Under the pieces are notes generated by a model. It had not been told where the DNA came from, searched no databases, and was given only the letters and a program-made list of their open reading frames with translations. The position numbers and the translations under genes are program-made. Of a DNA stretch of 64,000 bases, positions 27,683 to 64,000 are shown in pieces. This DNA comes from an uncultured Methanospirillum sp. Lineage in GTDB: Archaea > Halobacteriota > Methanomicrobia > Methanomicrobiales > Methanospirillaceae. The DNA lies in the NCBI GenBank assembly GCA_964637135.1, contig CAZWTX010000001.1:1-64000 (forward strand), written 5' to 3'. The first letter of the stretch is position 1; each line of letters begins with the position of its first letter.

Positions 27683-28669
27683 TCAGGAGGGTTGTATGGG
27701 ATCGATCTTACCAGGCAGGATATCATCCCGGCTGATCTGCCAGTCCCAGGGATCATGGGTGATGGTGACGGATACTTCTTTCACCCAGTTAATGAGCCGG
27801 ATACGAGATTCAACCTGTTTTGTGAGATATTCTATCAGCGGGCATGCATCGCAGTTGATGTACATCTCAACAACGACATCATCTCCTGAGATCCGTATTG
27901 ACCTAACCAGGCCGACATCGACGACGTTATGCCCGATCTCGGGATCGATCACCTGCCGGAGTGCCCCCAGGATCTCCTCCTCCCGGTCTGTTGAGGCCAT
28001 GATCTCATGCCCGGGCTTTAGCATGGTATTCTCCCGCTCCAGCCGGAAAATCCGGTCTTCCATCACCTGCTGTCGTTCAAGGAGCCGTGAAAGCACCCGG
28101 AGCGTCGGGTCAGGCATTGCGTTATCACGTATCTCATCCTGATTCATCCGTTTATCCAGCCCGGCTATCCTGCCGGGAACACCGACAACCGTTGCGCCGG
28201 GCGGGACATCCCTGACGACTACCGCCCCTGCACCAATCCGTGCATACTCTCCGACAGTAACCGGCCCGAGGACCGACGAACCTGATCCAAGGACTACCCC
28301 GGTTCCTATCGTCGGGTGGCGTTTTCCTTTCGTGAGCGTGGTTCCGCCGAGAACAACCCCCATATAGATGAGTACGTCATCACCGACCTCGGCTGTCTCT
28401 CCGATAACAACGCCCATACCATGATCGATAACAACTCCCTTCCCGATGACTGCTCCCGGATGGATCTCGATCCCGGTCAGAAACCGGGTAAGATGAGAGA
28501 TGAATCGGGCAGAAAGGTATCGTCGGTGCTGCCAGAGTGAGTGCGATATCCGGTACCCGATCATGGCATGAAACCCGGGGTAGCAGAGTACGATCTCAAG
28601 CCCTGATCTGGCAGCGGGATCTTTCCTGATGATGGCATGGATATCCTGTCGAATTTCTTTTATCATCAT
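27683..28669 (-). CDS. cysE: Serine O-acetyltransferase fused to a C-terminal DUF59 (FeS assembly/SufT-like) domain
   Basis: [33 protein letters not shown]-terminal [27 protein letters not shown]. Confidence 0.92.
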
Positions 28670-29614
28670 CTATTCCTCGAAAAGGGCTGTTGAGAGGTAT
28701 CTCTCCCCGGTATCGGGGAGGATGACCACGATCAGTTTTCCTTCGCTCTCCGGTCGTCCTGCGATCTGCATCGCCGCAGAAACCGCTGCTCCTGATGAAG
28801 CACCGGCGAGAATACCCTCTTCCCTGGCAAGACGCCGTGCCATGGCAAACGCCTCGGTCGTGGCGACAGGTATCACCTCGTCGAGCAGATCAGTCCTGAG
28901 TACACCGGGAATAAAGCCCGGGCTAATCCCCCATATAGAATGAGGACCTGGCCTGCCTCCCGAAATGACCGGGGAGTCTGCAGCTTCAACGGCGACTACT
29001 TGAAAGGATGGTTTTCGCTGTTTCAGGACTGTTGCAATCCCGGTGATCGTCCCTCCGGTTCCGGCACCGGCTACGACAATGTCCACCCTGCCGTCAGTAT
29101 CTTCCCAGATCTCTTCGGCAGTGGTCTCCATGTGGATCCCGGGGTTTGCCGGGTTATTAAATTGTTGCAGGATCAGAAACCGTTCGGGATCCTCCTGCTG
29201 TATAGCCTCGGCTTTTCTGACGGCTCCACTCATTCCCTCACTGGCAGGGGTAAGAACAAGTTCAGCCCCGAGAGCAGCCAGAAGTTTTCTCCGCTCAATA
29301 CTGAACGATTCCGGCATTGTCAGGATAAGGCGGTATCCCCGTGCTGCACAGACAAATGCCAGGGCAACCCCGGTGTTCCCGCTTGTGGGTTCAATGATGG
29401 TGGTATCCGGACCTATCAGCCCGTCCCGCTCGGCTGCTTCGATAAGGGCAATCCCGATCCGATCCTTGACACTTCCCAGCGGATTTCTCGACTCCTGTTT
29501 TACCACGATCACGGGTGGTCTGGCCAGGACGTTCAGGCTGCGAGGAATACGACGAAGCCTGATTAACGGGGTTTTACCGATCGTTCTGGTGATATCATCA
29601 TATATTTGTGCCAT
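28670..29614 (-). CDS. cysK: Cysteine synthase A (paralog 1)
   Basis: [10 protein letters not shown] (PLP Lys), [25 protein letters not shown]. Confidence 0.93.
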
Positions 29615-29733
29615 GGGATCAGATTCAGGTACCGGTTGCATCGATTATTAGACCCGGTTTGATAAAGGGATAGGGGTTGCGGCAACCGGCTCCTCTCTCC
29701 TTCGCGGATATCCTGAATTCTCTGGATCGTCTG

Positions 29734-29987
29734 TTATGAGACCTTCTGGATCTTTTCAGTGAATGCGTTGTTTTGAAGGGCTTTCTTCAGATTATCCATT
29801 TTTTCACCTGATAGCGATGGAAGCCGGATACGAAATGTTCCATCCACGGATACCGGTCCACGTAACTGTATCGTCTTCATACTATTCCCATCCGGGATGG
29901 GAACCCAGTACACCGCCTCCCAGGTATCCCTGGGATACCAGGTCACATAGGTATCCTTCTGTAATACCTGGATGGAACCGATGAACC
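29734..29987 (-). CDS. 3' fragment of a hypothetical gene that runs into the assembly gap
   Basis: Frame open from the N-run (FIGSIQVLQKDTYVTWYP...) to TAA at 29734; probably the C-terminus of the 31007 gene. Confidence 0.5.
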
Positions 29988-29997
29988 NNNNNNNNNN
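29988..29997. other. Assembly gap (10 N)
   Basis: Run of N in the sequence. Confidence 1.
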
Positions 29998-31007
29998 TAT
30001 GTCCCAATCCTGATATGGGTGACCTGATCGTTCTCTCCGGGTTCTGCAGTTTCCGGCCTCGTCTCTGACTCGGAGGAGGTATCATCGGCTGTTTCTTCCC
30101 CTCCGATCGATACCTGTGTTTCGGCCATCCCGGACTCATACCCGGTCTTTTCTGCTTCGGTACGGATCCATATCCTTCCTGAAACCTGCTGCGGCCAGGT
30201 TCCGGTGAGGACGCAGATTCCTTCTGAATTCGTGACGATATCCTTCTCCAGGGATTCATCGATGGAAGGAGCATAGAGAAGGAGAGAAACGGGCACCTCG
30301 GGGACCGTTTTTCCGGTTAAATCTGTTACCCGGACGGTTATCGTATAGGGATCACCGGGTTTGTAGACCCCGGTATCTGTCTGAATCCCGGGTACGAGTG
30401 ACTGGCTGACGGAAGGTTCCTCGCCCTCTTTTGTGATACCGGTATCAGAAAGCCCTTCAGGTGCTTTCAGGATCATGAGGCATTTTCCTATCCAGGAAGA
30501 GACATCCTCGTAGTTTTTTCCGAATCCTTCAGGATCGACTTTACGGAAATAGGCAACCCAGACTTCGTGGTTTCCGGTGACATAGCCGATCTCGCATCCG
30601 ATAACCTGGTCTGCATAGGTATCGGTGATCTCCATCACGTACCCGGTATCACCAAGATCAACCGGCTCCTTTTTCGATTGCGATTCATCTGCCTTCGATT
30701 CACGGATGTATTGCTCCATCGAAGCAACCCGTTTGTCATGATCTGACGGTTTAAACTCGCTCACGGTGATCCGGAATGTGATCCGCACCTCATCTCTGAC
30801 CGGGTAGTAACTTTTTGACTGGTAATACGAGTAGGTGTGATCGATCATCGTGTCATAGATGTCCGGGTCCAGTTCTGTGCAGGGATACGGATCAAAGAGG
30901 GTCTGGATCGCATCTCCTGAAGGAATCAGATCTTCCATCGTCTCTGCCAGACCAGGCTGAACGAACAGGAACAGAAAGAAAACGAAGAGGATTGCTGACC
31001 GGTTCAT
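29998..31007 (-). CDS. Secreted hypothetical protein with Ig-like (MG2/Big-type) domain, partial
   Basis: Signal peptide MNRSAILFVFFLFLFVQPGLA; TDTGVYKPGDPYTITVRV Ig-like motif; acidic linker; ends at the gap. Confidence 0.7.
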
Positions 31008-31075
31008 GACTCACCCACGGAATAATACCGGTATGAGAAGAAAAAGATTATCTGGCCTAAAGATCGATGAGAGAT

Positions 31076-31858
31076 CTACCGGTTCTCTCTTCCGTCGCTC
31101 ACAATTCCTGTTTCCCGAATGCGTTGCGGATGGGTATAGATGATCATCTTCCTCCCCCTGACAAATCCACCGATGGTAAGGCCCTTCGCTCCGGCAAGGG
31201 AGATCGCCATTGAGGTGGTCGCCCCCCGGGAGAAGATCACCGGAATGTTAGCGATGATGCATTTTCGTGCCATTTCAGAAGATATCCGGCCGGAGATAAG
31301 TGTCCAGGTCCGGGAGAGATCGATCCGGTTTTTCACCGCATAGCCGATCACCCGGTCGAGAGCATTGTGCCTCCCGATATCCTCTGCGACCGTAATGAGA
31401 CCGTTTTCGTCAGCAAGCCCGACAACGTGAATTCCCCCGGTCAGGCGGTGAAGTTCGGAGTCAAGAACCGTTTTTATGAGCTCATGAATCAGCCCGGCAG
31501 ATATGACAAGGTCTGACGAGATCTCCGGAAGGCGGGAGGGATCGAGGAACGAACTGTCCCCGCCGCATCCGGAGAGGACGGTCTTTGTACCGCCCTGGAT
31601 CCGTGTCCGTCCGGTGGTGAGCACCCGGATCTGGTGGCCGTCGATCTGGAGGGATTCAACCTCTTCCACGGTCCGGATGATCCCCTCGGTAACGAGGTAC
31701 CCGATGGCAAACTCCTCAAGTCTGGTCGGACTGGTCATGGCATTGAGCAACTGGCGTCCGTTCACCCAGAGCCCATACTGCTCCTCGATAATCACCTGGT
31801 GATCCCGGGATGCAAAGACCCCGTCATCTTCTCCGATACATGGTATGGTTATATACAT
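31076..31858 (-). CDS. fdhD: Formate dehydrogenase accessory sulfurtransferase
   Basis: SGCG, TGGIH, EDIGRHNALD, SGRISSEM. Confidence 0.93.
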   Translation of the reverse strand: MYITIPCIGEDDGVFASRDHQVIIEEQYGLWVNGRQLLNAMTSPTRLEEFAIGYLVTEGIIRTVEEVESLQIDGHQIRVLTTGRTRIQGGTKTVLSGCGGDSSFLDPSRLPEISSDLVISAGLIHELIKTVLDSELHRLTGGIHVVGLADENGLITVAEDIGRHNALDRVIGYAVKNRIDLSRTWTLISGRISSEMARKCIIANIPVIFSRGATTSMAISLAGAKGLTIGGFVRGRKMIIYTHPQRIRETGIVSDGRENR

Positions 31859-33048
31859 CAGATCCCTTCCGCGATCTCCCTGACCGCATCGGTAAAGAAT
31901 TCAACCTCATCGGCCGTATTGTAGAGATACAGGCTTGCCCTGATGGTCCCGTCCGGGCAGCCGAGATGCTCCATGAGCGGCATGCAGCAGTGATGACCTG
32001 ACCGGACCATGGTATCGTACTGGTCATCGAGGAGATGGGCTGCCTCATGCGGATGGTACCCGTCGATCAGGAAGGAAACGGTTCCAACCCGCTTATCACT
32101 CCCATCCGGACCGAAGAGGGTAACCCCTTCGATACCGGACAGTCCATCCAGGAGCAGTCCGGTCAGGGCCGTCTCATGGGCGAAGATCTCATCCATCCCT
32201 ATCCCGGAGAGGATCTGTACCGCCTTTCGAAGCCCGATCGCTCCGGTCACGTTCGGGGTTCCTGCCTCGAGACCCGCATACCCATCCTCCGGCGTGTATC
32301 CATCGGTCGTCACCTCCCGTATCATTCCGCCGCCGAGGAGCATCGGCGTAAGATCCGGCTCCTTCATCCAGAGCACCCCGGTTCCAGTCGGACCAAGCAT
32401 CTTGTGGCCTGAGAAGCAGAGGTAGTCACAGCCAATGGCTCTCACATCCACCGGTAGGTGGGGAACCGACTGGGCAGCATCGATCAGGGTCTTCACCCCA
32501 TTGTCCCGGGCAATGGCGGCAATCTCCTGGACCGGCTGGATCGTGCCGAGAACATTGGAGAGATGGCTGCAGGCAATGAGCCGGATATTCTTCGTGATCT
32601 TCTCCCCGATGGCGTCAGGGTCGAGGTACCCGTCCGGTCCGGGAGTGACGATCTCGACCGTAATTCCTCTCTTTCGAAGATCAATCCAGGGAAGAAGGTT
32701 TGAATGATGTTCAAGGAGGGTCGTTATCACCTGGTCTCCTTCCTGAAATTCCATCCCGAACGCCACCTGGTTGATCGCCTCGGTCGTGTTCTTCGTGAAG
32801 ACCGTAACGCCTCCTTCGCCGTGGATGAACCGGGAGACTGTCTCGTGGGCATCCCAGTAGAGCTGGGAACTAACCTGGCTGAGCCGGTGAATGCCCCGAC
32901 CAACATTTCCCCGGCTGGTCAGGTCGTAGGAGTACATCTCGTCGAGTACTGACCGGGGAACGAGGCTGGTTGCCGCCGAGTCAAAATAGATGAGTTCCCC
33001 GGCAAGCGGAATCTCCCCCCTGATGGATTCGATAGTAATAATGCTCAT
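31858..33048 (-). CDS. sufS: Cysteine desulfurase (SufS type)
   Basis: YFDSAAT, EHHSN, FSGHKMLGPTG, RSGHHC. Confidence 0.93.
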   Translation of the reverse strand: MSIITIESIRGEIPLAGELIYFDSAATSLVPRSVLDEMYSYDLTSRGNVGRGIHRLSQVSSQLYWDAHETVSRFIHGEGGVTVFTKNTTEAINQVAFGMEFQEGDQVITTLLEHHSNLLPWIDLRKRGITVEIVTPGPDGYLDPDAIGEKITKNIRLIACSHLSNVLGTIQPVQEIAAIARDNGVKTLIDAAQSVPHLPVDVRAIGCDYLCFSGHKMLGPTGTGVLWMKEPDLTPMLLGGGMIREVTTDGYTPEDGYAGLEAGTPNVTGAIGLRKAVQILSGIGMDEIFAHETALTGLLLDGLSGIEGVTLFGPDGSDKRVGTVSFLIDGYHPHEAAHLLDDQYDTMVRSGHHCCMPLMEHLGCPDGTIRASLYLYNTADEVEFFTDAVREIAEGI

Positions 33049-33120
33049 ATCACAAATGTAACCAGTGCCTGACTGTTCTCTCTCCTGCCAATACTCTTAT
33101 GGAATGGTGCATCTAATAGT

Positions 33121-33136
33121 TTTCACAATTGTGAAA
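33121..33136. promoter_or_regulatory. Perfect palindrome TTTCACAATTGTGAAA (putative sulfur-regulon operator)
   Basis: Between divergent sufS and nadA; the motif recurs at four other promoters of the sulfur locus. Confidence 0.8.
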
Positions 33137-34129
33137 CGAGATCCTCCTGATCAAAATTCTCCCGGTTTCTCAAACGATGAGGTAACCGGCGAGATTCTTG
33201 CCCTCAAGGACGAACTCAATGCCTGTATCCTCGTGCATAACTATCAGCGGCCTGAGATCTACGAGGTCGCCGACCGGATCGGCGACTCCCTGGAACTGGC
33301 TCTCGCAGCGAAACGGGCCGGAAAGGAGACCATCGTATTTTGCGGGGTTGATTTCATGGCCGAGACAGCAAAGATCGTGAATCCCGGCTGCCGGGTCCTC
33401 CATCCGGTTCCGTCTGCCCGATGCCCGATGGCCCACATGGTCACCCCTGAAAAGGTGGCCGTGATGCGGGAGAAATATCCGGATGCCACCGTCGTCAGTT
33501 ATGTAAATACCACGACCGAACTTAAATCAGTCTCCGATCTCTGCTGCACATCTGCCAATGCGGTGGATATTGTCAGGTCAGCACCGTCTGACGACGTGAT
33601 CTTCCTTCCCGACCTGAACCTCGCCGCCTATGTCCAGCGGTACACCACGAAACGGATCATTCCCGGCCGGGGGAACTGCTATGTCCATGATGCCATCACG
33701 CCGGCAAAGATAGATGCTCTCCGTTCATTCCATCCCGGATCTTCTGTCATTGCCCATCCCGAATGCCGGCCGGAGGTGCTTGATCGGGCTGATGCCATCT
33801 GTTCAACCGGAGGGATGATTGCCTACTGTAAGGACAGTTCTGCCGGATCTTTTATCATCGGAACAGAGGTAGGTATGATCGAACGATTGAAGCGGGAGAT
33901 CCCAGAAAAAAAATTTTTCCCGGCTGCAGGAACCTGTGGACCGATGAAAGAGATCACCCTTGGAAAAATCCTTGCCTCCCTCCGGGACGGGACCGGAGAA
34001 GTGACGATCTCCCCGGATCTTGCAGCAAAAGCCCTCGTCCCGCTTGAGAGGATGCTGGAACGCAGTCGGAACCGTCGGTATGTTCCCTGCCGGAGCCTGA
34101 AGAAGACCGGTCTCGGATTCTTCTCGTAA
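33131..34129 (+). CDS. nadA: Quinolinate synthase
   Basis: HNYQ, GDSLEL, FCGVDFMAETAK, YVNT, CYVH, HPEC; start uncertain (33104 or 33131). Confidence 0.93.
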   Translation: MKRDPPDQNSPGFSNDEVTGEILALKDELNACILVHNYQRPEIYEVADRIGDSLELALAAKRAGKETIVFCGVDFMAETAKIVNPGCRVLHPVPSARCPMAHMVTPEKVAVMREKYPDATVVSYVNTTTELKSVSDLCCTSANAVDIVRSAPSDDVIFLPDLNLAAYVQRYTTKRIIPGRGNCYVHDAITPAKIDALRSFHPGSSVIAHPECRPEVLDRADAICSTGGMIAYCKDSSAGSFIIGTEVGMIERLKREIPEKKFFPAAGTCGPMKEITLGKILASLRDGTGEVTISPDLAAKALVPLERMLERSRNRRYVPCRSLKKTGLGFFS

Positions 34130-34318
34130 GGAGAGATCAATTCTCCCTGACGCCCGGTCCATCCGGCACAGGGGATGAGCGGGGATCCAGATCAGATCGC
34201 CGATCTGAAATCCTGTATATTTGGCCTTATTTTGAAAGATTGCGGGGATAATCTATTTCTGCAAATACTGCCTATTCCCAACTACTTTTATGGATAGTTG
34301 TCAATTCTTATGAGTAAC

Positions 34319-34332
34319 GTCACAATTGTGAA
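34319..34332. promoter_or_regulatory. Operator-like site GTCACAATTGTGAA upstream of pscS-metY-metX
   Basis: 13/14 match to TTCACAATTGTGAA, about 37 bp before the ATG. Confidence 0.8.
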
Positions 34333-34368
34333 AACCAAATCATTCTGATACGGAGGTGAAATAACACG

Positions 34369-38513
<4,145 letters not shown>

Positions 38514-38530
<17 letters not shown>

Positions 38531-47046: not shown

Positions 47047-47054
47047 TTATTTTA

Positions 47055-48201: not shown

Positions 48202-48891
48202 ATGAAGATCGGGATCGTGAGCGACGGGCAATATGGCGAGCGTGCATTTGAACAGATCCGGAAACGGTTCCCAACTGAGTGGATTCTTCTCCCGTTTCCC
48301 TCTTCTCCGGTCGTAGACGATATCGATCTCACCATTCCCTCCTGTGATCTTTACCTATCTTATCTCCGGCATCCTGATATCGCGATGGAACTAGTAAAAA
48401 CCGGTGTCCCGGTTCTTCTCGGGGTGAATCTCGGGCCGGGATTTCTTGCCCAGGCTCGTGAGTACAACCCAGCGGTGATAGGTCCGGAGACGATGTGTTC
48501 CCTCCTCCCGAATACCCCTTTCTGGCAGATCAACGAGTATGCAAAAGTTTTCGGCAGGCCGGTTTTCTATGTGATTCTGGACGGAGACCGGGTGGTCTGG
48601 TGTCACCCACTCCGTGGGTCTCCGTGCGGTTCAACAAAAGCAGCAGCCCGTGAGCTGAATGGGCAGAATTTCAACCAGGAAGCAATGAATCGGTTTGCTC
48701 TCTCAATCTGTCACAATTGCCGGGCTCCCCGGTTCGGAAGAACCTGTGATAAGGAGAAGGCCGGAATCATCCACCTGGAAGAACTACTTGTTGCAATGAA
48801 GAGGATTAATCCGGATCTGTGGGAGAGGAGAAGCAGTGATATCGAGCGTATCCGATGTTCGGTTGCATCAGAGCGTGATGAGGAAAAATAG
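48202..48891 (+). CDS. DUF166-like conserved archaeal protein
   Basis: GQYGER, HPD, MCSL, FGRP, SPCGST. Confidence 0.75.
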   Translation: MKIGIVSDGQYGERAFEQIRKRFPTEWILLPFPSSPVVDDIDLTIPSCDLYLSYLRHPDIAMELVKTGVPVLLGVNLGPGFLAQAREYNPAVIGPETMCSLLPNTPFWQINEYAKVFGRPVFYVILDGDRVVWCHPLRGSPCGSTKAAARELNGQNFNQEAMNRFALSICHNCRAPRFGRTCDKEKAGIIHLEELLVAMKRINPDLWERRSSDIERIRCSVASERDEEK

Positions 48892-49765: not shown

Positions 49766-49836
49766 TACCCCAGCCCGGAATCGAACCAGGATTCGCTGAT
49801 CTGCAGTCAGCCACATAGCCTCTCGGCCACGCTGAT
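49766..49836 (-). pseudogene. Degenerate tRNA-Cys(GCA) copy 1
   Basis: Anticodon arm GCTGA-CTGCAGA-TCAGC and T arm CCTGG-TTCGATT-CCGGG are intact; acceptor stem ATCAGCG/CTGGGGT has 3 mismatches. Confidence 0.75.
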
Positions 49837-49941
49837 CGAGCCAGGCATCCGCATATCATCCAGATATATGTAGAATCTGAGATGGTGGGGAGGTTATGGG
49901 GGATCCGGTTCTCACCCAAAAGTCATCTCCGCTTGATCTGT

Positions 49942-51435
49942 TTAAATCCGTGTAAAGGTGCCGAACTCATCGGATGTAAAACCATTTACAGAACCCAAAG
50001 GAGTCGCAGTAAAGGTAAGATATCCGACGAGATCATCCGGATTCGGGAAAGAGAGATACCAGGTATTATTCGTCCAATGCGTCAGATTCCCTTCGTAGCC
50101 ATTCGGACCAAGTCTGATGATCATATTTTCTGCATCCAATCCATCTTCTATCTCCATGCTGCCATACAGATCGCTCTTGAATGATCCTGCAATGGCAGAT
50201 GGTTTGATTGTCGCAGGTTCAGGATTTTCAGGGCGGTCAGGATTTTTAATAAGGGAATTCCATCCTGCTTGTGATGCTATTTCCTGAGCCTGAAGATCCA
50301 CTTCACTTTTCCCGATGTACCGTTCAAGAAACTCATCCCTGACAGCCTCCGGGAACGCAGTCAGCTGTTTGTTGGCAATGACCACAAGACCACTGTTCTT
50401 TCCAGGTATGAGGATAACAATCGAACGAACACCGTCTAGTGCTCCGTTCTTCTCAATGACACGTTCACCGAGGAAATAATACGAGTCGCAACCAAGGCCG
50501 ACCGCCCCGTTTGGATCTTTCAGTGGTCCACTCGGTCCGGCGACAAAACTTGCTGCATGAATATCATTTACCGTTTTTTGTGTGAGGATCTGTGTACCAT
50601 CTATTGTCCCCCCGTTCAACATCATTCGCAAAAATTGCGTCATATCCCTGCCGGTTGATACGATCTGACCAGCAGCGGGGAGTGAAGCCTCCTCTAACGG
50701 GATAATATGAACACTTCCGGAAGTCCCTCCATGGCCGGCGATATGGTTCTGGTCTAGATACAGTGTTTCAGGATTGGCTCCTGATCTGGTCATCCCAAGT
50801 GGTTTGATAATTCGTGCATCGGTTAGGTTTTCCCAGCTCTGGTTGTCGGCTTTTGCCGCTACTTCTCCTGCAATGAAATATCCCGCATTTGAATAGAGAT
50901 ACCGTTCCCGGAAACCTGCATCAGATTCAAGGTATCTCATGCGGTACAATATTTCCTCAGGGGAATACCCGATTCTTCCAAGTAACTCACCGTCACGTCT
51001 GAGGCCGGTCCGATGAGCAAGCATATCACGAAGATTCGAATGGTTACCGACGTATGAATCTTTCAATGTAAAACCTGGCAGATAGGTGGAAACCGGTGTG
51101 TCCCAGTTCAGTTTTCCTTCATCCACCAAAGTACCGATAGCAGCCCCGGTGAAATACTTGGTCACCGATGCGATCTGAAACCGGGTATCCGGATCAACTT
51201 TCTCAGGGTTCCCCAGTTCCCGAACACCGAACCCCTTCAGAAATACGACTGAATCGTTCTCTACGATACCTACTACAGCACCCGGGACCTCATAATCAAC
51301 CATCTTCTGACTGAAAAAAGTATCAAATCCATCAAGTTTGTCAGCCTCCTGGTGGATATCTGCATACCCAAAACAGACAAAGATGGCAGATATAAAACAG
51401 ATTGCAAAAAAAAGGCGTCGGAAAGTATTCTGCAT
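49942..51435 (-). CDS. Secreted serine hydrolase (beta-lactamase/AmpC-like family)
   Basis: Signal peptide; FQIASVTK (SxxK), YSN, LAHRTG. Confidence 0.9.
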   Translation of the reverse strand: MQNTFRRLFFAICFISAIFVCFGYADIHQEADKLDGFDTFFSQKMVDYEVPGAVVGIVENDSVVFLKGFGVRELGNPEKVDPDTRFQIASVTKYFTGAAIGTLVDEGKLNWDTPVSTYLPGFTLKDSYVGNHSNLRDMLAHRTGLRRDGELLGRIGYSPEEILYRMRYLESDAGFRERYLYSNAGYFIAGEVAAKADNQSWENLTDARIIKPLGMTRSGANPETLYLDQNHIAGHGGTSGSVHIIPLEEASLPAAGQIVSTGRDMTQFLRMMLNGGTIDGTQILTQKTVNDIHAASFVAGPSGPLKDPNGAVGLGCDSYYFLGERVIEKNGALDGVRSIVILIPGKNSGLVVIANKQLTAFPEAVRDEFLERYIGKSEVDLQAQEIASQAGWNSLIKNPDRPENPEPATIKPSAIAGSFKSDLYGSMEIEDGLDAENMIIRLGPNGYEGNLTHWTNNTWYLSFPNPDDLVGYLTFTATPLGSVNGFTSDEFGTFTRI

Positions 51436-51520
51436 GAAATGGAATTAGTGTACAGGTAAAAAAAAATTCTTATTTTATTTGGCACGTATGAAGGAAAAAC
51501 CTGCAATCTGAAAGGAGTTT

Positions 51521-51591
51521 AGCCAGCATCTGAAGTCGAACCGGGCTTCGCTGATCTGCAGTCAGCCACACAGTTTCTCTGAAAAGCTGGC
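51521..51591 (-). pseudogene. Degenerate tRNA-Cys(GCA) copy 2
   Basis: Acceptor GCCAGC/GCTGGC with U73 and the same anticodon arm as copy 1; D and T stems are disrupted. Confidence 0.72.
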
Positions 51592-51807
51592 ATGGCACTG
51601 TCTATGCTGAACCAGTTGTCACCTCCGGAGACGATAATAGAGAAGAATCCGGTACGATCTTCCTCATTCCATTCTGCGTTGATGTATTGGATCCGGCATT
51701 CATTGCCGGTATCCGGTCTCTGATGAACTCGGCTCTCCTATCTGCACGTATCACCCGGCAGGTCATCCGAATCTTTTGGGACCCTGCCGGAATCCAGATA
51801 TGATACC

Positions 51808-52800
51808 ATGACCGGAAATCTAACCGCAGAACGAAAAGCTGAGCTCATCAGCATCGGCACCGTAACCGTTGACAAGGATCTGAAACTCCCTGAGTATATC
51901 GCCCGCTCGACCGCCGGCCCCGGCGCCGGAGGACAGTCGGTCTTCTTCGCTGCAGACAACCGGAGGGTCAGGCTCTCTATCCGGGATGAAAGCCGTCTTC
52001 ATATGAAGACGGACGGAGATCAGGTGATCCTTGAGAAGGACGGTATCGGGATTGCCAGGGGCGTTATCGAATCGGCACCGGCCCATTGTCCCCGGCAGGC
52101 ATACATCACCGTTTCAGAGCGATGTTGTTTCCACTGTGCCTTCTGCCCGGTTCATAGCCTGCAGGGACCGGTGAAGAGCAAGCAGGAGATTACCGCTCTT
52201 ATCGATCAGGTGCTGGTCACCGGGGATCTTCACGCGATCTCGCTCACGAGCGGGGTTGAGATCTCCCCCGAAGCAGAATGTGCTCGGATGGCCGGTCTTG
52301 TCAGGGAACTGCGCCCGGAGTACCGGGTTCCGGTCGGTGTCTCAGTCTATCCGACACCGGATAGTTCTGACGTGCTCCACGAGGCAGGAGCAGTCGAGGT
52401 CAAGTACAACCTGGAGACGACGGACCCTGAGATCTTTGCAAGGGTCTGTCCTGAACTGAACCAGGATGAGATCCGTGAGGCCCTCTCCGGGGCCGTGGAT
52501 ATCTTCGGGCCGGATCATGTCAGCTCCAACATCATCATCGGTCTTGGGGAGACGGACGGGAATGTCCTCTCCGGGGCAGAAGACCTGGCAGTTCTCGGAG
52601 TTATTCCGAACTTCCGTCCGGTGGTGCTCAGCCCCCGGGTCTCCCTTCCGGGAGCGGTCCGGCCTTCTGCAGAGAGACTGGTGACCCTTGGTCTCGCACT
52701 TAAGGATATCCTCTCTGATTACGGGCTTGATCCCCGCAATGCCCGGACAATGTGCCTGCCCTGCACCGGATGCGACATCGTTCCATTCCGGGATCTCTGA
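51808..52800 (+). CDS. Radical SAM protein (biotin-synthase-related methanogen family)
   Basis: STAGPGAG, HCPRQAY, CCFHCAFC, C-terminal CLPCTGCD. Confidence 0.85.
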   Translation: MTGNLTAERKAELISIGTVTVDKDLKLPEYIARSTAGPGAGGQSVFFAADNRRVRLSIRDESRLHMKTDGDQVILEKDGIGIARGVIESAPAHCPRQAYITVSERCCFHCAFCPVHSLQGPVKSKQEITALIDQVLVTGDLHAISLTSGVEISPEAECARMAGLVRELRPEYRVPVGVSVYPTPDSSDVLHEAGAVEVKYNLETTDPEIFARVCPELNQDEIREALSGAVDIFGPDHVSSNIIIGLGETDGNVLSGAEDLAVLGVIPNFRPVVLSPRVSLPGAVRPSAERLVTLGLALKDILSDYGLDPRNARTMCLPCTGCDIVPFRDL

Positions 52801-52876
52801 TTCTGTTCCCGGAGAGGATCATATCCTCTTTTCCAGCGACGTATTCCGGGCCGGTTGCAAGGATAAAAAAAAGGAA

Positions 52877-53827
52877 TTATGAAATCTGATCAAAGACACC
52901 GGTCGAGAGGTATCGCTCCCCGGTGTCAGGAAGGATGGCAATGATCAGCTTTCCGGCATTCTCCGGACGTGATGCAACCTGAAGAGCTGCAGCAACCGCT
53001 GCACCCGAAGAAATTCCCGCCAGGATTCCTTCCTCCCGGGCGAGCCTGCGGGCCATATCAAACGCCTCCTCATTTGTTATCCGGATCACTTCATCGAGCA
53101 GATCGGTCCGGAGGACATCAGGGATAAAACCCGGACTGATCCCCTGGATCTTATGAGGTCCCGGCTTTCCCCCCGAGATTACCGGAGAATCGGCCGCTTC
53201 GACAGCTATTGCCTTAAAAGATGGTCGTCTCTTCTTGAGAACCGTGGCGATCCCGGTGATCGTTCCTCCGGTACCGGCTCCGGCGACGACGATATCCGCG
53301 AGTCCGTCGGTATCATGCCATATCTCCTCGGCAGTGGTATGCATATGGATCTCAGGATTTGCCGGGTTCTTGAACTGTTGGGGAATCAGAAAAGTATCCG
53401 GATTTTCCCGGTGGATCTCCTCTGCCTTTCTTAGCGCTCCTGACATTCCTTCTGATGCAGGGGTGAGGATGAGCTCAGCACCAAGGGCTGAAAGGAGTTG
53501 CCTCCGTTCAATGCTGAATGACTCCGGCATGGTCAGAACCAGCCGGTACCCTTTTGCAGCGGAAACAAATGCAAGTGCAATTCCGGTGTTCCCGCTCGTG
53601 GGTTCGATGATGGTCGTTCCCTGCCTGATGAGTCCATCGCGTTCGGCAGCTTCTATCAGGGCAACTCCTATCCGGTCTTTTACACTCCCAAGGGGATTTC
53701 TCGACTCCTGTTTCACCACAATGGTCGGCGGAAAGGTCTGGGTCTGCAGCCCACTGGTAATCCTGTTCAGTCTGATAAGGGGAGTATTCCCGATCGTCTT
53801 GGTAATGTCATTGTAAATACGTGGCAT
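52877..53827 (-). CDS. cysK: Cysteine synthase A (paralog 2)
   Basis: [18 protein letters not shown], canonical [17 protein letters not shown]. Confidence 0.95.
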
Positions 53828-53845
53828 ATCTGTCAGCACCTTTTT

Positions 53846-53859
53846 TTCACAATTGTGAT
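53846..53859. promoter_or_regulatory. Operator-like site TTCACAATTGTGAT upstream of cysK paralog 2
   Basis: 13/14 match, about 19 bp from the start codon. Confidence 0.8.
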
Positions 53860-54136
53860 AGTGGTGATTATTGGATACCCTATCTAATAGGACTGCAGGT
53901 AGAGGCAATTATGGCAGGATATCCCGATCCAAAGAGAAATCTTGAGGCATCTATATCCTCATTCTCACTCATTATGTAGAGGAAGATCATACGTGTGTAT
54001 CACTTCGGTATACCCTGGTCCTGAATGTCTGGAATTCTGCGAAAAATAGATCATATATCCAGACCGGCATTCATCCCTTATTGAGGGAATGAGTCTGCAT
54101 GACGGGATATCCGGATTTTTATCCGATATGAATCGT

Positions 54137-54209
54137 GCCGGTGTGGCAGAGCGGCTAATGCGTTCGCCTGCAAAGCGAATTTCTGGGGGTTCAACTCCCT
54201 CCGCCGGCG
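54137..54209 (+). tRNA. tRNA-Cys(GCA), A37, apparent G73
   Basis: Full cloverleaf: GCCGGTG/CGCCGGC acceptor, TTCGC-CTGCAAA-GCGAA anticodon arm, GGGGG-TTCAACT-CCCTC T arm. Confidence 0.92.
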
Positions 54210-54231
54210 TAACCCACGATAAGGAGTTTTT

Positions 54232-55500
54232 TTGGTGGAACTATACAGTACATTGTCACGGACGGTTCAGCCTGTGGTTACGGTATCCCCCGGTCGTATC
54301 TCAATGTTTGTCTGTGGTCCCACGGTGTATGACTACGCTCATCTTGGCCATGCACGGACGTATGTTGTCTTTGATGTTCTTGCCAAATTCCTCCGGTTCA
54401 CCGGACTTGAGGTGTTCTACCTCCAGAACATTACCGACGTCGATGATAAGATCATCAACCGGGCAGAGGCTGACGGGGTATCCCAGCCGGTCCTGGCACG
54501 GACGTTTGAATTAGCGTACCTGGCAGATATGCAGTCTCTCGGGATTGATGCCGTGAGTTACTATGCACGGGCCACGACGCATATCCCTGAGATTGTCAAC
54601 CAGATCGAGCGGCTCGTTGCCAAAAAATCTGCGTATGTCACGGAATCAGGGGTCTACTTTGATCTTGATACCTATCCCCGGAACGGGGAACTCTCCGGGC
54701 AGAAGCGTGATAAAAGAGTCAGCCGGGTGACTGATACGACCAAACATAATCCCCAGGATTTTGCCCTCTGGAAGTTCGGGGAGTTTGGTGAGTATACCTG
54801 GGACTCACCCTGGGGCCGGGGCCGTCCTGGCTGGCATATCGAAGATACCGCGATCACGGAGAAGTACTTCGGGCAGCAGTACGATCTCCACGGAGGCGGA
54901 CTTGATCTCATCTTCCCTCATCATGAAGCCGAGATCGCCCAGATGGAATCGCTTGAAGGAAAGTACCCGATGGTGCGGTACTGGGTGCATACCGGATTCC
55001 TTACCATGGAAGGCGAGAAGATGTCAAAATCTCTCGGAAACTTTATTACCATCAGAAAGGCACTCTCCACCTGGAACAAAGATGTTCTCCGCTTTTTTAT
55101 CCTTCTCTCCCATTACCGCTCTCCCCTGCAGGCTTCGGATGAGGGGATTGAACGTGCACGGCAGGCCCTTGAACATATCCGGGCCATTGCCACGAAAGAC
55201 AACGGGGAGAACCCGGAGGGGAGGAGAGCATTCATCGAGGCCATGGAGGCTGACCTGAACACCCCGATGGCCCTGGCTGCCATTCAGAAGCTGGCATCCA
55301 GCGGGGATATCGAAGCACTCAGGATGTACGGCGAGATCCTCGGGATCACCTTCCTGCGTGAGGAATCGGTTCCGATCACGATCCTCCAGGATATCCGGGC
55401 AGAACTTCGTGCACGGCGAGCCTTCGATCTCGCTGATACCATCCGTGACCGGATGGTTTCTGCCGGAATCACCATCACGGATCCCCCATTAAAAAAATAA
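54232..55500 (+). CDS. cysS: Cysteine--tRNA ligase
   Basis: CGPTVYD..HLGH, NITDVDDK, GRPGWHIE, FPHHE, KMSKS, ADTIRD; RBS AAGGAG; 22 bp after the tRNA. Confidence 0.95.
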   Translation: MVELYSTLSRTVQPVVTVSPGRISMFVCGPTVYDYAHLGHARTYVVFDVLAKFLRFTGLEVFYLQNITDVDDKIINRAEADGVSQPVLARTFELAYLADMQSLGIDAVSYYARATTHIPEIVNQIERLVAKKSAYVTESGVYFDLDTYPRNGELSGQKRDKRVSRVTDTTKHNPQDFALWKFGEFGEYTWDSPWGRGRPGWHIEDTAITEKYFGQQYDLHGGGLDLIFPHHEAEIAQMESLEGKYPMVRYWVHTGFLTMEGEKMSKSLGNFITIRKALSTWNKDVLRFFILLSHYRSPLQASDEGIERARQALEHIRAIATKDNGENPEGRRAFIEAMEADLNTPMALAAIQKLASSGDIEALRMYGEILGITFLREESVPITILQDIRAELRARRAFDLADTIRDRMVSAGITITDPPLKK

Positions 55501-59166: not shown

Positions 59167-59180
59167 TTAACAATTGTGAA
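59167..59180. promoter_or_regulatory. Operator-like site TTAACAATTGTGAA
   Basis: 13/14 match; lies between the divergent ABC operon and DUF1890. Confidence 0.7.
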
Positions 59181-59277
59181 GATTGATATCCTTCAGGAAC
59201 CTTATCTGATCAGTACGGGACTGAACAGGTACCGGCTGGAATCAGTTCTGTTACATTCTGCTCAACCAGGACAAAAT

Positions 59278-59751
59278 ATGTCAGAGCCAGGGAAAACAGC
59301 ACTATTGGTACTTGGATGCCCTGAAGTGCCCATCCAGATGGCCCTTGCCCTTTTTGCCGGATACCATCTGAAAGCAAAGGGGTACCAGGTAATTTCTGCA
59401 GGGAATCCGGCGGTGATGAAACTGATCAGGACCTCGGATCCGGCCGGTCACTACCTTGACCAGTTTACATCACTTGAACGATCTATCGAGGGGATCACCG
59501 GAGGACAAACCACCTACGATCTCTGTCTCTGTTTTGCACACAACGATTCAGGGATTGCATATGCGGCAACCTTCCGGTATCTCCTTCCGGAGACCCGGCT
59601 GGTGACGGTGGTCTTCGGTCGGGAGGCAGAGGATCTTGCCACGAGGATCGAGTACGAAGGTGAGGTCATTATCGAGAAGGCGGTGCATAATCCGATTCCA
59701 CTCCGGAGAAAACTTCAGGAGGTGATGGGATGGGCTGCATCGAAGACCTGA
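59278..59751 (+). CDS. DUF1890 family methanogen protein
   Basis: ALLVLGCPEVP, FAHNDSG, AVHNP. Confidence 0.8.
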   Translation: MSEPGKTALLVLGCPEVPIQMALALFAGYHLKAKGYQVISAGNPAVMKLIRTSDPAGHYLDQFTSLERSIEGITGGQTTYDLCLCFAHNDSGIAYAATFRYLLPETRLVTVVFGREAEDLATRIEYEGEVIIEKAVHNPIPLRRKLQEVMGWAASKT

Positions 59752-60029
59752 CCTATGATGTGATCGCAAAAAACCTGAGTTTTGCCGAATCCAGAAAACT
59801 CATAGAGAACCGGTGTGATGAAACCCACCAGATAGAACCGGGATCCAAGCTCTTCGGTGAACCGATCATCGGCCCGCCGCCGATTGTGATCGGGATCGAT
59901 GGTGACGCTGTTTTCTTCCCCTATGTGAAACCCTGCCATGGCACCTTCCTCCTGCGCATCAGCGATCCGGAGGAGGTCAGCCGGATTCGTGAAAAAGTTC
60001 GATCTAAGATCCTCTCAAAACGTAGATAA
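59730..60029 (+). CDS. DUF1894 family methanogen protein
   Basis: MGCIE..IIGPPPIVIG..FPYVKPCHGTF. Confidence 0.8.
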   Translation: MGCIEDLTYDVIAKNLSFAESRKLIENRCDETHQIEPGSKLFGEPIIGPPPIVIGIDGDAVFFPYVKPCHGTFLLRISDPEEVSRIREKVRSKILSKRR

Positions 60030-60119: not shown

Positions 60120-60133
60120 TTCACAATCGTGAA
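60120..60133. promoter_or_regulatory. Operator-like site TTCACAATCGTGAA just upstream of a TATA-like box
   Basis: 13/14 match, followed by TTCATATA about 26 bp before ATG 60169. Confidence 0.72.
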
Positions 60134-60168: not shown

Positions 60169-60457
60169 ATGACAAGAAGGGATCGTTTTTGCCTCTACTG
60201 AGGCCGAAATTCAGTACACCAGAGTAATCGGGCATCTGCCACCATCGGCCAAACTGGTCTATCTGGCGCTCGAAAATGGAGAGCAACTGACTCAGAAAGA
60301 TCTCATTGGAAAGACCCGGCTCCCTCCACGGACAGTCCGGTACGCTATCCAGCGTCTGAAAGAGACTGAGATTGTCAGGGAGAGAATGAGTTACAAGGAC
60401 GCTCGTCAGAGTTTCTACATCTTAAATGAGGTGGTACCACTTTCACAGGCTGCCTGA
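60169..60457 (+). CDS. Archaeal MarR/TrmB-like wHTH regulator requiring a +1 frameshift (not in the ORF track)
   Basis: Frame 60173-60457 encodes LPPSAKLVYLALENGEQLTQKDLIGKTRLPPRTVRYAIQRLKE..DARQSFY with no in-frame ATG/GTG/TTG ahead of the domain; ATG 60169 opens MTRRDRFCLY* in the adjacent frame. Confidence 0.82.
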
Positions 60458-60781: not shown

Positions 60782-62134
60782 TCAGAGCGGGCCGACAAAG
60801 GAACTGATCAGTTCTTCCATAAGGGAGAGTCCCCCCTCATATCCGGCAAGACTCCGGTTCAGGATGAGCCGGTTGTATGCCGGGAACGAGATCGTGACCG
60901 GGTTTGCCCCGAGGCCGAAGTCGGCAAGGGCGGTCGGTGCCTCAAGGGAACTGGCGAAGAGGAAGAGGGCTGATCGTCCTTTTAGATTCTCCTTGATCAG
61001 GTGTGAATCGCTCTCAAACCGGATCTCGGGAACCACCGGGGTTTCAAGACCGGTGGACAGTGCCCTGACGATATCGTCCCTGACCTCTTCAGGCGGGTTG
61101 TCCGTTACCTGGATAAGGTCCGGGAGGTACCCAAGTTCATTGATCAGGAACCTGCTCACGCCGATCGCGGTCCCTGAGTCTGCCACCACCGAGAAGTAGG
61201 CATGTGGTCTGACAAGGACAAGGGCATCTCCCCCGTACTCGATGAACCGGTATGCCCGCTGTTCTTCCTCTTTGATCACCGACTCTACCAGATCGGAGGG
61301 AACCTTGAAGTGTTTCCCGATGGTCCGGAGGAACGCTGCGGTCTGCTTGGGGCCGATCGGCACCGAGGGGAACGCAAGGTACGGCTGATCGAACTTCTCT
61401 TTCAGTTTCCCAGCGGTCTTGATCCCGTTCCAGGTCGAGAGAACGACGTTTAGCGATGCAGATGGGATCTGCTTGAGCTGGGCTGCTCCGTCAAACTCCG
61501 CGGCAAAGACCCTGGCCTTGACGCCGATCCGTGCCAGGAGCTGTTTGATTGCTCTTGTATCTCCTTTCCAGAAGATATGCTGATATGGCACGACTCCGAA
61601 GATGTTCACCGTCTTGTCTTCTTTCGGCAGGGGAACGAGAAGATCTTCGATGACGGCATCGAAGAAGAGCTCGTACCCGTCATAGGAGGTACCGTTGAAC
61701 CCCGAGGTCTTCACGTGGATGACATCTGCCGTGTCCTTAAACTCCCGGACGACTGCGTTGACATCATCGCCGATCAGGGACGGGACACAACCGGTGATCA
61801 CGGCATAGATATCCCCATCCATGACCTCGATTGTAGAACTGATCAGATGGCGGAGTTTGTCTTCTCCACCGAAGACCACATGATGCTCCACGAGTCCTGA
61901 ACAGGGGGAACTGGTTCCTCCCTGGGGACCTCCGGCATTCTGACCACCGGCATAGAGTTGTCCAAAGAGCTGTCCGATACCACAGCCGGCTCCTGAATGG
62001 AGGATCGGCACCACACCGAAGATGCCGACCGCGGTTGCATAGGCTCCACCAAGGGCACAACTATACCGCGGGGCCTCGATTGCTCCAAGACCATTTTCCG
62101 TGGATGGTGCTTCTGCTTCTATAGGGGGTGTCAT
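60782..62134 (-). CDS. Nitrogenase-like component 1 beta subunit (group IV, MarK-like)
   Basis: RYSCALGG, HSGAGC, VVFGGE, ITGC..IGDD (three P-cluster-type Cys). Confidence 0.88.
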   Translation of the reverse strand: MTPPIEAEAPSTENGLGAIEAPRYSCALGGAYATAVGIFGVVPILHSGAGCGIGQLFGQLYAGGQNAGGPQGGTSSPCSGLVEHHVVFGGEDKLRHLISSTIEVMDGDIYAVITGCVPSLIGDDVNAVVREFKDTADVIHVKTSGFNGTSYDGYELFFDAVIEDLLVPLPKEDKTVNIFGVVPYQHIFWKGDTRAIKQLLARIGVKARVFAAEFDGAAQLKQIPSASLNVVLSTWNGIKTAGKLKEKFDQPYLAFPSVPIGPKQTAAFLRTIGKHFKVPSDLVESVIKEEEQRAYRFIEYGGDALVLVRPHAYFSVVADSGTAIGVSRFLINELGYLPDLIQVTDNPPEEVRDDIVRALSTGLETPVVPEIRFESDSHLIKENLKGRSALFLFASSLEAPTALADFGLGANPVTISFPAYNRLILNRSLAGYEGGLSLMEELISSFVGPL

Positions 62135-63687
62135 TATTCTGCCTCTTTTATCAGGTAGTAGAGCGGGTCAGGCTGGGCATAGAACCACTCCTTGTAACTG
62201 TCGGCGGTCTTCTCCTTGAGAGTCTTCTGGAATGCCGAACTCTTCAGGGACTGGAGCAGGAAGTTACCGTAGGCGACTGCTCCCGTGTACCCGCTCTGGG
62301 TGCTCCACGGGTGCGGATCTCCTCTCAGTGCATGAATCCTGGTCATTCCCTTCTCACGCTTGTACGCTCCTCCCTGGAACGGGCAGGAGAGGGTCAGGTC
62401 GGGGTCAACCTTCCGAGTGATATGTGCCTGTTCGGCAGCCTGGAAGGTATTGATCAGGAGATCGAAGTCACCGATCCGTTTCACGAGATCCTCAAGCTCC
62501 TCAAGGATCAGGTTGTCATAGTCCTGGGACATGGCAGCCGGCGATGCGATCCCGAGTTCGTCGAAGTACGGGAGCTGGGCAAGGAGCCGCCCCTGTCCGA
62601 GGGATCCAAGAACCGAGAGTTTTCTCCCCTTTTCCTCGGCAATCCGGTCGAACTCTGCCCTGATGGCATGAAGTTTCGGCTTCCAGGTCGCATGCTCCTC
62701 GGTGATGAGGTTCTCAATCTCTACTTCCTTTCCAGTGTATTTTCCGATCTCACGAAGCCATCCGTCGGTGTTGGCAAATCCCATCGGGGACGGGTAGAGG
62801 AAGAACGGAACCCCGTGCTCCTGTTCAAGGCCGCGAGAGATATAGTCGGTATAGGTCGGGCAGAGCGGTGCCGTTACGGCAGCAGATGAGAGCTGCTGGA
62901 ACTGCTCGACGGTTGCAAACTCCGGAACCAGGTTTGCCCGGAGACCTACTTTTCCGAGCAGGCGCTGCACTTCCATCCGGTCCTGCCAGGTATAGGAGAG
63001 CATGCTCGCGACGTTGACCAGGTCGGGCTGTTTCTCCGTGGGCTTCTTGACCAGGTACTTCAGGATGGCATGCCAGAAGGCATCGTATCCGGTCTGGACA
63101 AGCCGGGATCTGACTCCCTCACAATGAACCGGAACCAGGGTTGATTTGATGTGGGGCTGCACATCGGCAACCACTCCTTCAATATCCTCCCCGATGATCC
63201 CGGTCGTACAGGAGGTCAGGATGAAGATTGCCTTCGGGTCATATCTCCGCTCGGCCTCAAGGATCGCCTTCTTGAGCTTGTCTCCGGCCCCGTAGACCAC
63301 GTCCTGCTCCCGCAGGTTGGTGGTCATCCAGTGCATTTCGTAATTGGCTGGTCTGCCAAACTCGACTGGAACCCCCCGGTAGAGTTCCCGGTATCCAAGG
63401 GCGGAAGAGGAACATCCAACCGGTGCATGGAAGATCGTTGCCGCATCACGGATGGTCGAGATCCGGACCGAGAGGTAGAAGTTGAGGGAACAGCCGGACG
63501 TCTGCTGAAATCCCCGTTCATGGTTCTTCAGGCAGCCGCCTTTGGCCTGCTCCACGAGCTCGCTTGCCTTTCCGTAGAAGATGTTGACTCCTCCGGCACG
63601 TTGCTCCCGGTTTGGACAGGTCGGCTGGGAAAGATCGATCTTGCGCTCGAAGTACTCCTTCTCCGCCTCTTCAGTATTTTTGTACAT
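62134..63687 (-). CDS. Nitrogenase-like component 1 alpha subunit (group IV, MarD-like)
   Basis: REQR, QTSGC, HAPVGC, TTNLREQDVVYG, TSCTTGIIGED, HCEG, PLCPT. Confidence 0.88.
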   Translation of the reverse strand: MYKNTEEAEKEYFERKIDLSQPTCPNREQRAGGVNIFYGKASELVEQAKGGCLKNHERGFQQTSGCSLNFYLSVRISTIRDAATIFHAPVGCSSSALGYRELYRGVPVEFGRPANYEMHWMTTNLREQDVVYGAGDKLKKAILEAERRYDPKAIFILTSCTTGIIGEDIEGVVADVQPHIKSTLVPVHCEGVRSRLVQTGYDAFWHAILKYLVKKPTEKQPDLVNVASMLSYTWQDRMEVQRLLGKVGLRANLVPEFATVEQFQQLSSAAVTAPLCPTYTDYISRGLEQEHGVPFFLYPSPMGFANTDGWLREIGKYTGKEVEIENLITEEHATWKPKLHAIRAEFDRIAEEKGRKLSVLGSLGQGRLLAQLPYFDELGIASPAAMSQDYDNLILEELEDLVKRIGDFDLLINTFQAAEQAHITRKVDPDLTLSCPFQGGAYKREKGMTRIHALRGDPHPWSTQSGYTGAVAYGNFLLQSLKSSAFQKTLKEKTADSYKEWFYAQPDPLYYLIKEAE

Positions 63688-63695
63688 GTTTGCTC

Positions 63696-64000
63696 CTATC
63701 TGGCCCTGACCGACTCGGCAGACCGGGCATTGCCCGGCTGCACGGTCAGTTCATTATCTGTCTTCGTCTCGAGCAGCCGGTCAGACCAGGACTCTGCCCA
63801 TGCCTTCAATTCATCAGCCTCGAGTGGTTTTGGTACATACCGCTCCTCATTGCCGAGAATGGTTCTCGCCAGGATCCGGTATTTCTCTGCCTGTTCGGAA
63901 TCAGGATCGTATTCTACCGCCGTCTGTCCACGCAGTTCGCTCCTCGTGATCGTGGGAGACCGCGGGATGTATCCGGCTATGGTGGTTGAGGTCTTTGCGG
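63696..64000 (-). CDS. NifH-like Fe protein (MarH-like), 3' part only
   Basis: Hand translation: ..GYIPRSPTITRSELRGQTAVEYDPDSEQAEKYRILA..PKPLEADELKAWAESWSDRLL..*; the start lies beyond the window. Confidence 0.85.
   Translation of the reverse strand, partial: AKTSTTIAGYIPRSPTITRSELRGQTAVEYDPDSEQAEKYRILARTILGNEERYVPKPLEADELKAWAESWSDRLLETKTDNELTVQPGNARSAESVRAR

Follow-up and report, generated by a model that had tools for sequence, protein, structure and literature searches.

We describe an operon at the end of a 64,000-nucleotide stretch of archaeal DNA (positions 1 to 64,000 of contig CAZWTX010000001.1, assembly GCA_964637135.1, from an uncultured Methanospirillum sp.; hereafter the window). 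Judged from their sequences, its products NflH, NflD and NflK form a complete two-component nitrogenase-like enzyme belonging to a clade apart from the methylthio-alkane reductases (MAR). We further propose, with somewhat better than even confidence, that NflHDK catalyzes the ATP-driven reductive cleavage of a C-S bond in an imported organosulfur compound, thereby freeing its sulfur. This proposal is supported by the MarDK proteins as the best solved match, by conserved cluster ligands, by the position of the clade, by sulfur-related gene neighbours and by the existence of carriers that have no nifD.

Gene organization, phylogenetic position and cluster ligands

The three genes are intact, contiguous and all on the minus strand. 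nflK (60782..62134) encodes a beta subunit of 450 amino acids, nflD (62134..63687) an alpha subunit of 517 amino acids, and nflH an Fe protein; the window edge cuts nflH, leaving its 3' part (63696..64000), and the whole gene of 300 amino acids lies at C1:63696-64598. Eight bases separate nflH from nflD, and nflD overlaps nflK by one base. NflH has a Walker A motif and Cys96 and Cys132, while the six P-cluster cysteines are divided between the alpha (Cys66, Cys92, Cys160) and beta subunits (Cys26, Cys51, Cys116). The alpha subunit additionally carries a cofactor-type cysteine, Cys276, within the motif PLCPT, a second predicted cofactor ligand, His452, and the conserved residues Cys189 and Cys435. 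The first-pass annotation of this DNA had described contiguous nifH-, nifD- and nifK-like genes with three P-cluster cysteines in each of alpha and beta and a cofactor cysteine in alpha, lacking nifI between H and D and nifEN after K and unlike the single-subunit CfbD arrangement; the gene calls, together with the full nflH found in the genome, bear out each of these statements for the locus.

None of the three subunits reaches the NCBIfam cut-offs for Nif, Vnf, Anf, NifE, Cfb or Bch. The alpha subunit scores 123.8 bits (cut-off 653.55) with nifD, 121.7 (505.1) with nifE and 49 (268.4) with CfbD (TIGR03282), and NflH scores 386.4 (394.35) with nifH and 348.1 (402) with CfbC. The host genome (Methanomicrobiales, 2.8 Mb, 97.7% complete) encodes elsewhere a nifH-nifI1-nifI2-nifD-nifK-nifE operon, cfbC and cfbD (on contig C3) and one nifB. 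A further nitrogenase-like system may be represented on small contigs of the same genome by a NifH-like fragment (C97:1865-2488) and a ligand-poor NifD/E-like gene (C110:257-1492). Four RNA-labelled runs each yielded one contig of 183-254 bases identical to nflK or nflD; DNA carry-over is possible, so these are no evidence of expression.

Among solved structures, the alpha subunit matches MarD (9FMG chain A) at 233.5 bits, with the best NifD at 99.8, and the beta subunit matches MarK (9D9U chain C) at 296 bits, with the next match at 72.5. Both entries are titled 'Nitrogenase' in the PDB search, and 9FMG is the methylthio-alkane reductase of Rhodospirillum rubrum (PMC12552129). We computed alpha (D) subunit trees from 50%-identity representatives of the best 150 of 1,409 matches, of which those with 430-560 amino acids were retained, together with clade members and locus proteins (123 rows); trees of 121, 62, 34 and 39 rows were mutually consistent. 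MarD was represented by P0138 (616 bits to MarD), the sole proxy for Group IV-C, and the proxies for IV-A, IV-E and non-Isr IV-F were labelled by eye against Table S1 of PMC13753814 (9 organisms of 75 rows); IsrD was not in the trees.

NflD falls in a fully supported clade, with P0121, P0122 and a second Geotalea paralogue as sisters, which lies inside Group IV and apart from NifD and NifE (Shimodaira-Hasegawa-like approximate likelihood ratio test, 100). The IV-A, IV-C and IV-E proxies fall in a separate group with the Arg-His motif (100/100). Forcing P0138 into the NflD clade costs 87.9 log units, and the approximately unbiased test rejects it (p=1.24e-07); NflD is 31% identical to P0138. 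The nine Table S1 organisms have no match in the NflD clade, and that 75-row table has no 'Methano' row. Trees, profile scores and the MarDK match thus agree with the first-pass assignment to a Group IV nitrogenase-like HDK system distinct from Nif, NifEN and Cfb, and the phylogeny it had suggested as a check did not group NflD with NifD or NifE. A different Group IV DK pair, about 34% identical to this alpha subunit, occurs in two methanogen genomes (L145:6582-9313 and L001:18365-21099) outside both the NflD clade and the Mar group.

Residue conservation was assessed in an alignment of the 120 best listed NflD homologues (65-80% identical). Cys92, Cys160, Cys189, Gln198, Tyr201, Cys276, Arg367, Asp389 and His452 are invariant in all 120, and Cys66 is retained in 119, Cys435 in 118, Arg100 in 117 and Val74 in 99. 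Compared with NifD proteins from relatives, His452 (in TRIHALRGD) aligns with NifD His442 in realigned hhalign and L-INS-i alignments; an unrealigned hhalign run places His452 differently. The first-pass remark that no HSWDY-type histidine is present holds for the literal motif but missed this invariant residue. NifD Val70 and Arg96 correspond to NflD Val74 and Arg100, and Arg367 lies at or adjoining NifD Arg359 (for Arg96 and Arg359 we assume Azotobacter vinelandii numbering). NifD Gln191, His195 and Gly424 are replaced by Val197, Tyr201 and Cys435.

The reported MAR ligands are six P-cluster cysteines, Cys270 and His429, with His194, Trp195, Phe199 and His375 in the pocket and Arg428-His429 proposed as a hallmark (PMC12552129). 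The Arg428-His429 columns are occupied in NflD by Cys435-Pro436, or in one profile alignment by Arg444-Glu445, with no histidine either way, and the pocket residues become Leu196, Val197, Tyr201 and Asp389. As Cys276 and His452 match the NifD ligand positions and Arg428-His429 is absent, we propose that NflDK probably binds a P-cluster and an L-type cluster, the latter held in the fashion of nitrogenase and not of Mar. Cys435 may be an alternative second cofactor ligand; it is missing in one sister sequence (L002:19681), which retains the histidine. With the Mar hallmark residues absent, the clade outside the group of the MarD proxy and no linked marB or nifB in the archaeal loci, an identity with MAR, toward which the first-pass annotation leaned, is not supported: on these sequence criteria NflHDK is not a MAR (Group IV-C).

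Distribution, sulfur-gene context and the proposed reaction

The NflD clade is large and tight and is common to methanogens and anaerobic bacteria, its named members coming from Methanoregula, Methanospirillum, Methanosarcina, Methanothrix, Methanoperedenaceae, Methanobacterium, Methanobrevibacter, Clostridia, Negativicutes, Geobacteraceae and Oscillochloris. Its distribution is patchy: it is present in 19 of 401 genomes in the order, in 8 of the genus's 24 other genomes and in 10 of 301 from the phylum. Two or three DK pairs occur in some genomes. The cultured carriers are two, Methanospirillum lacunae Ki8-1 and Methanoculleus palmolei DSM 4273. The order thiI-larE-small open reading frame (ORF)-nflHDK is common to the named Methanospirillum loci (L008 and L010, in part L005 and L009), with alpha identities of 80-82%. 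No nifD above cut-off was found in the five tested Methanomicrobiales carriers outside the window's family, and one was present in nine of ten other carriers tested; a single unlinked nifB occurs in all ten carriers tested for it.

Contextual information was drawn from 27 neighbourhoods (23 archaeal, 4 bacterial) of 4-30 kb each; those from related genomes do not count as independent. Sulfur-assimilation or sulfur-transfer genes are present in 15, metY or cysK in 12, an SsuA/SsuC-type importer in 13, an MtaA-like methyltransferase in 5 and a nifX-like gene in 3, and none of the 27 has a PII/nifI homologue. metY abuts nflH in Methanoculleus palmolei, metX-metY abut nflK in L010, and in Geotalea the cluster has genes for a sulfate-binding protein and an Rrf2 regulator as well as cysK. 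These counts, and the sulfur genes of the window itself, agree with the sulfur-locus context noted in the first-pass annotation. It had also suggested looking beyond the window for transporters and a nifB or marB gene: an SsuA-like ATP-binding cassette (ABC) importer was found (C1:69648-72437), and marB or nifB is linked in none of the 23 archaeal loci and in one of the four bacterial ones.

By homology, NflH would pass electrons in an ATP-driven manner via the P-cluster to an L-type [Fe8S9C] cluster, which would have Cys276 and probably His452 as ligands and come from the single unlinked NifB of the genome; NifB is able to replace MarB (PMC13753814). This cluster would then reduce a C-S bond of an imported organosulfur compound. 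Given how often SsuA/SsuC-type importers occur nearby, we posit that the substrate is likelier to be non-volatile, such as a sulfonate or a polar thioether, with coenzyme M or methyl-coenzyme M as one candidate, than dimethyl sulfide (DMS) or ethyl methyl sulfide (EMS); in M. acetivorans SsuA/SsuC is a coenzyme M importer (PMC12068725). The context further suggests that the thiol, sulfide or sulfite released would pass to CysK, MetY and SepCysS, and that the nfl genes would be used under sulfur shortage. Gas output would be set by sulfur demand; in R. rubrum it is 10-90 umol per litre per OD (optical density), which is expected to be negligible beside methanogenesis; methane, ethane or ethylene from a sulfur-assimilation enzyme would be formed in trace amounts only.

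Several points weigh against C-S cleavage of an imported compound. Within the DNA covered, 12 of the 27 neighbourhoods contain no sulfur gene and 14 no Ssu-type importer, and the importer binding proteins score under the SsuA cut-off (48-131 against 163.5). Almost every Group IV clade has sulfur neighbours irrespective of function, and since methanogens in general carry nifB (PMC13474568), finding it here adds little support. The palindrome that recurs among the window's sulfur genes (see below) is absent before nflH, leaving sulfur control of the operon unsupported. Finally, the NifD-like residues Val74, Arg100 and Arg367 in the pocket could favour small inorganic substrates.

The last point leads to the proposal that Nfl reduces small inorganic or one-carbon sulfur species (thiocyanate, carbonyl sulfide, CS2, thiosulfate, polysulfide) to sulfide for assimilation. 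Nitrogenase itself reduces such small sulfur and one-carbon molecules, and the NifD-like pocket with its loop-II His452 and the sulfate-binding protein, Rrf2 regulator and cysK of Geotalea fit such a role; the importers near the archaeal copies are, however, of the SsuA/NMT1 type and not of the sulfate type, and two or three DK paralogues per genome fit a range of organic substrates, making this reading improbable. We likewise consider it unlikely that Nfl has MAR activity toward volatile thioethers (DMS, EMS, methylthio-ethanol), delivering methanethiol to MetY together with methane, ethane or ethylene. MarDK is the nearest solved structure, metY adjoins the operon in several relatives, and the MtaA-like methyltransferase of 5 of the 27 loci would suit such chemistry, but Arg428/His429, His194/Trp195 and His375 are all replaced, the identity of 31% to the MarD proxy compares with 52-65% among the three Mar-like DK homologues of Rhodopseudomonas palustris, and this genome has no MtaA-corrinoid module. 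Moreover, MAR activity was found in 15 of 20 IV-C systems and is reported inside Group IV-C only, the tested IV-A, D, E and F systems falling under the MAR threshold except for one on DMS (PMC13753814).

A function as a NifEN-like metallocluster scaffold or store, rather than a catalyst, is suggested by a nearby cysteine desulfurase gene, genes for sulfur transfer (thiI, larE, moeB) and nifX-like (3 of 27) and AnfO-like genes. It is very unlikely given the operon's own Fe protein, the full six-cysteine P-cluster set, the presence of the operon in genomes that have no nifD and its grouping far from NifE. The fixation of N2 or reduction of a nitrogen compound, as proposed for the Group IV-A Nfa proteins, could draw on Cys276 and His452 at the ligand positions of the iron-molybdenum cofactor. 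Nevertheless, Val197 and Tyr201 stand in place of Gln191 and His195, the clade is outside IV-A, PII/nifI neighbours are missing and the genome has a true nif operon, and we regard such chemistry as extremely improbable. Reductive C-S cleavage of an imported organosulfur compound therefore remains the reading that we prefer.

The sulfur island and its possible regulatory motifs

The sulfur genes of the window span cysE (27683) to cysS (55500). A first block (27683..38530) comprises the sulfur-assimilation genes cysE, cysK, fdhD, a sufS-like gene, nadA, SepCysS, metY and metX, with SepCysS-metY-metX at 34369-38530, and is a possible sink for released sulfur; the metXY genes to which the first-pass annotation had linked the operon are thus real, but they lie about 22 kb from nflK. 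A second block (49767..55500) holds two tRNA-Cys genes, a radical S-adenosylmethionine (SAM) gene, a second cysK (52877-53908) and cysS (54232-55500), the last coexisting with SepCysS in the window. Two genes of the first block are fusions, cysE with a SUF-associated C-terminal domain (27683-28669) and metX with CBS domains (37049-38530). Between the blocks (39292-48891) are an ACR3-like transporter, arsenate-reductase-like and ArsR-like genes, permeases and OsmC proteins, named from their translations, with only OsmC and DUF166 profile-scanned.

Past the window edge, the contig continues with an upstream motif (C1:64661-64704), a conserved small ORF, larE, thiI, a tRNA-Cys gene and the importer. 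The small ORF (C1:64718-65020, minus strand) encodes about 100 amino acids with no family match and is present in 15 of the 23 archaeal nfl loci, two of them from another order; as it also occurs in sulfur islands that have no nfl genes (L125, L126), a role as an Nfl subunit is unsupported. The three tRNA-Cys genes of the island (49767-49837, 54136-54210 and, upstream of thiI, C1:66982-67052) have counterparts of 2-4 copies in relatives, often right after a palindrome. A radical SAM gene adjoins nfl in L144:6651-7826 (NF045502 family), L043:9246-10478 and L046:11780-12940, with a weaker relative in the window (51808-52800), and may have an IsrB-like role. In hydrogenotrophic methanogens, genes for an MtaA-like methyltransferase, a corrinoid protein, the RACo activase and DUF1847 stand beside the operon (L012:13776-17725, L004, L126, L133), resembling the methyl-sulfur clusters of PMC10418091; the module is absent from the present genome. 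An AnfO-family gene directly follows nflK in L043 (10700-11341), a genome with three DK pairs.

A palindrome, TTCACAATTGTGAA, occurs at five sites in the window at up to one mismatch, against 0.01 expected by chance. A perfect copy lies between sufS-fdhD and nadA (33122..33135), and others precede SepCysS-metY-metX (34319..34332), the second cysK (53846..53859) and the DUF1890/DUF1894 genes (59167..59180; genes at 59176-60029), while TTCACAATCGTGAA (60120..60133) is in the promoter of an HTH (helix-turn-helix) gene. The palindrome is absent from the 450 bases upstream of nflH in this genome and in 16 of 16 relatives, and in this genome also up to the start of thiI. A role as direct nflH operator is thus rejected for that interval in all 17 promoters: the site flagged in the first-pass annotation is real but does not lie directly upstream of nflH. 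About 105 bases upstream of nflH there is instead a two-part motif, TTGCCGCA followed some 23 bases on by GCCA-N4-TTGC (C1:64661-64704, minus strand), a pattern unique within this genome. Of 16 related promoters, 13 carry its first half unchanged and three differ from it by one or two bases; where D-K is transcribed separately from H (L042, L045), the motif is found again ahead of nflD. No strict match was seen in the four clade loci from other orders (L141-L144). Because a looser form also turns up as background across whole genomes (in 60 of 201, with many hits in controls as well), only the fixed position upstream of nfl counts. A GGAA-N6-TTCC (NrpR) site is found before neither nflH nor the true nifH, which makes it uninformative.

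Abutting nflK and convergent with it is a small winged-HTH gene (60169..60457, plus strand), whose product scores above the cut-off for HTH_24 and below that for MarR_2; it is present in 10 of the 23 archaeal loci, and for 29 of 30 close homologues the promoter contains the palindrome. Its ATG at 60169 opens a 10-codon frame (with Arg-Phe-Cys); the HTH domain is encoded in the +1 frame (60173-60457). A cassette ATG-(0 or 2 codons)-AGK-GAT-YGT-YTT-TGY, the domain being in the +1 frame, was recovered in 35 of 36 loci (34 by script, 1 by eye; the remaining one is cut by a contig end). It occurs in 36 of 151 genomes with zero control hits, among them all 8 nfl carriers of the sample and 28 of 143 others. 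We take the cassette to resemble the prfB +1 shift, with a Cys codon in place of the prfB stop, and therefore consider the gene a candidate for a cysteine-sensing programmed +1 frameshift. Against this, an in-frame GTG in four loci would make a shift unnecessary, and the observed base changes are silent when read in the +1 frame, too. A gene for a Cys-rich HTH protein is present in 4 of the 27 loci and on contig C8 of this genome.

A bolder combination, in which the clade enzyme would break down coenzyme M or a related sulfonate-thiol for sulfur with Mcr-independent release of ethylene or ethane, a nitrogenase-type loop-II histidine as cluster ligand, a mobile sulfur island and a regulator working via a cysteine-sensing +1 frameshift, strikes us as quite unlikely in its entirety.

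Significance and comparison with known systems

What is added here for this variant of the sulfur-linked Group IV enzymes is its linkage to a sulfur palindrome and a candidate frameshift-leader HTH gene, an operon-specific upstream motif and two cultured hosts. In the sources as available, most Group IV clades have no assigned function, and MAR and isethionate reductase (ISR) are described from bacteria only. Archaeal Group IV NifDK are mentioned where MAR is said to be known from bacteria only (PMC9447857), and a Geobacter sp. FRC-32 sequence of this sort was named near sulfur genes in an earlier survey (PMC3464626). The literature searched, with subscription papers mostly outside it, yielded no functional study of a methanogen nitrogenase-like sulfur enzyme, of the palindrome or of the frameshift. 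If C-S cleavage is correct, methanogens would gain an organosulfur-scavenging route and a small Mcr-independent hydrocarbon source; as two cultured strains carry the operon, the clade is testable now. The combination of a nitrogenase-type histidine ligand with a non-fixing pocket also bears on the mode of cluster binding in the ancestor of nitrogenase and MAR (PMC12552129).

MAR and ISR, the two sulfur-linked Group IV enzymes with a described function, both cleave C-S bonds (PMC13474568), and the substrate of ISR is a sulfonate (PMC11423573). The ISR of Rhodobacter capsulatus (IsrBHDK, Group IV-F) is comparable to Nfl as a Group IV sulfur-supply enzyme beside sulfonate-type ABC importers, yet IsrDK has four P-cluster cysteines only and no cofactor Cys or His, whereas Nfl has all six together with Cys276 and His452. 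The MarBHDK system of R. rubrum shares with Nfl the H-D-K architecture, the six P-cluster cysteines, the cofactor cysteine and a sulfur-gene context; Nfl differs in having Cys435-Pro436 in place of the loop-I Arg-His pair, an invariant loop-II histidine, a separate clade, no linked marB, an archaeal host and other regulatory motifs. Mar2 of R. palustris shows that a Mar relative can shift to other C-S substrates such as ethanedithiol (bioRxiv 10.64898/2026.08.20.746119), but it is about 65% identical to Mar1 and retains Cys270/His429. With molybdenum nitrogenase NifHDK, Nfl shares by alignment the P-cluster cysteines, the Cys275 and His442 positions and equivalents of Val70, Arg96 and Arg359, and it differs by the loss of Gln191, His195 and Gly424, by the absence of nifI and nifEN and by scores far under the NCBIfam cut-offs. 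CfbCD (Group IV-B) is, like Nfl, a nitrogenase-like reductase of methanogens, but has a single-subunit homodimer where Nfl has both a D and a K subunit.

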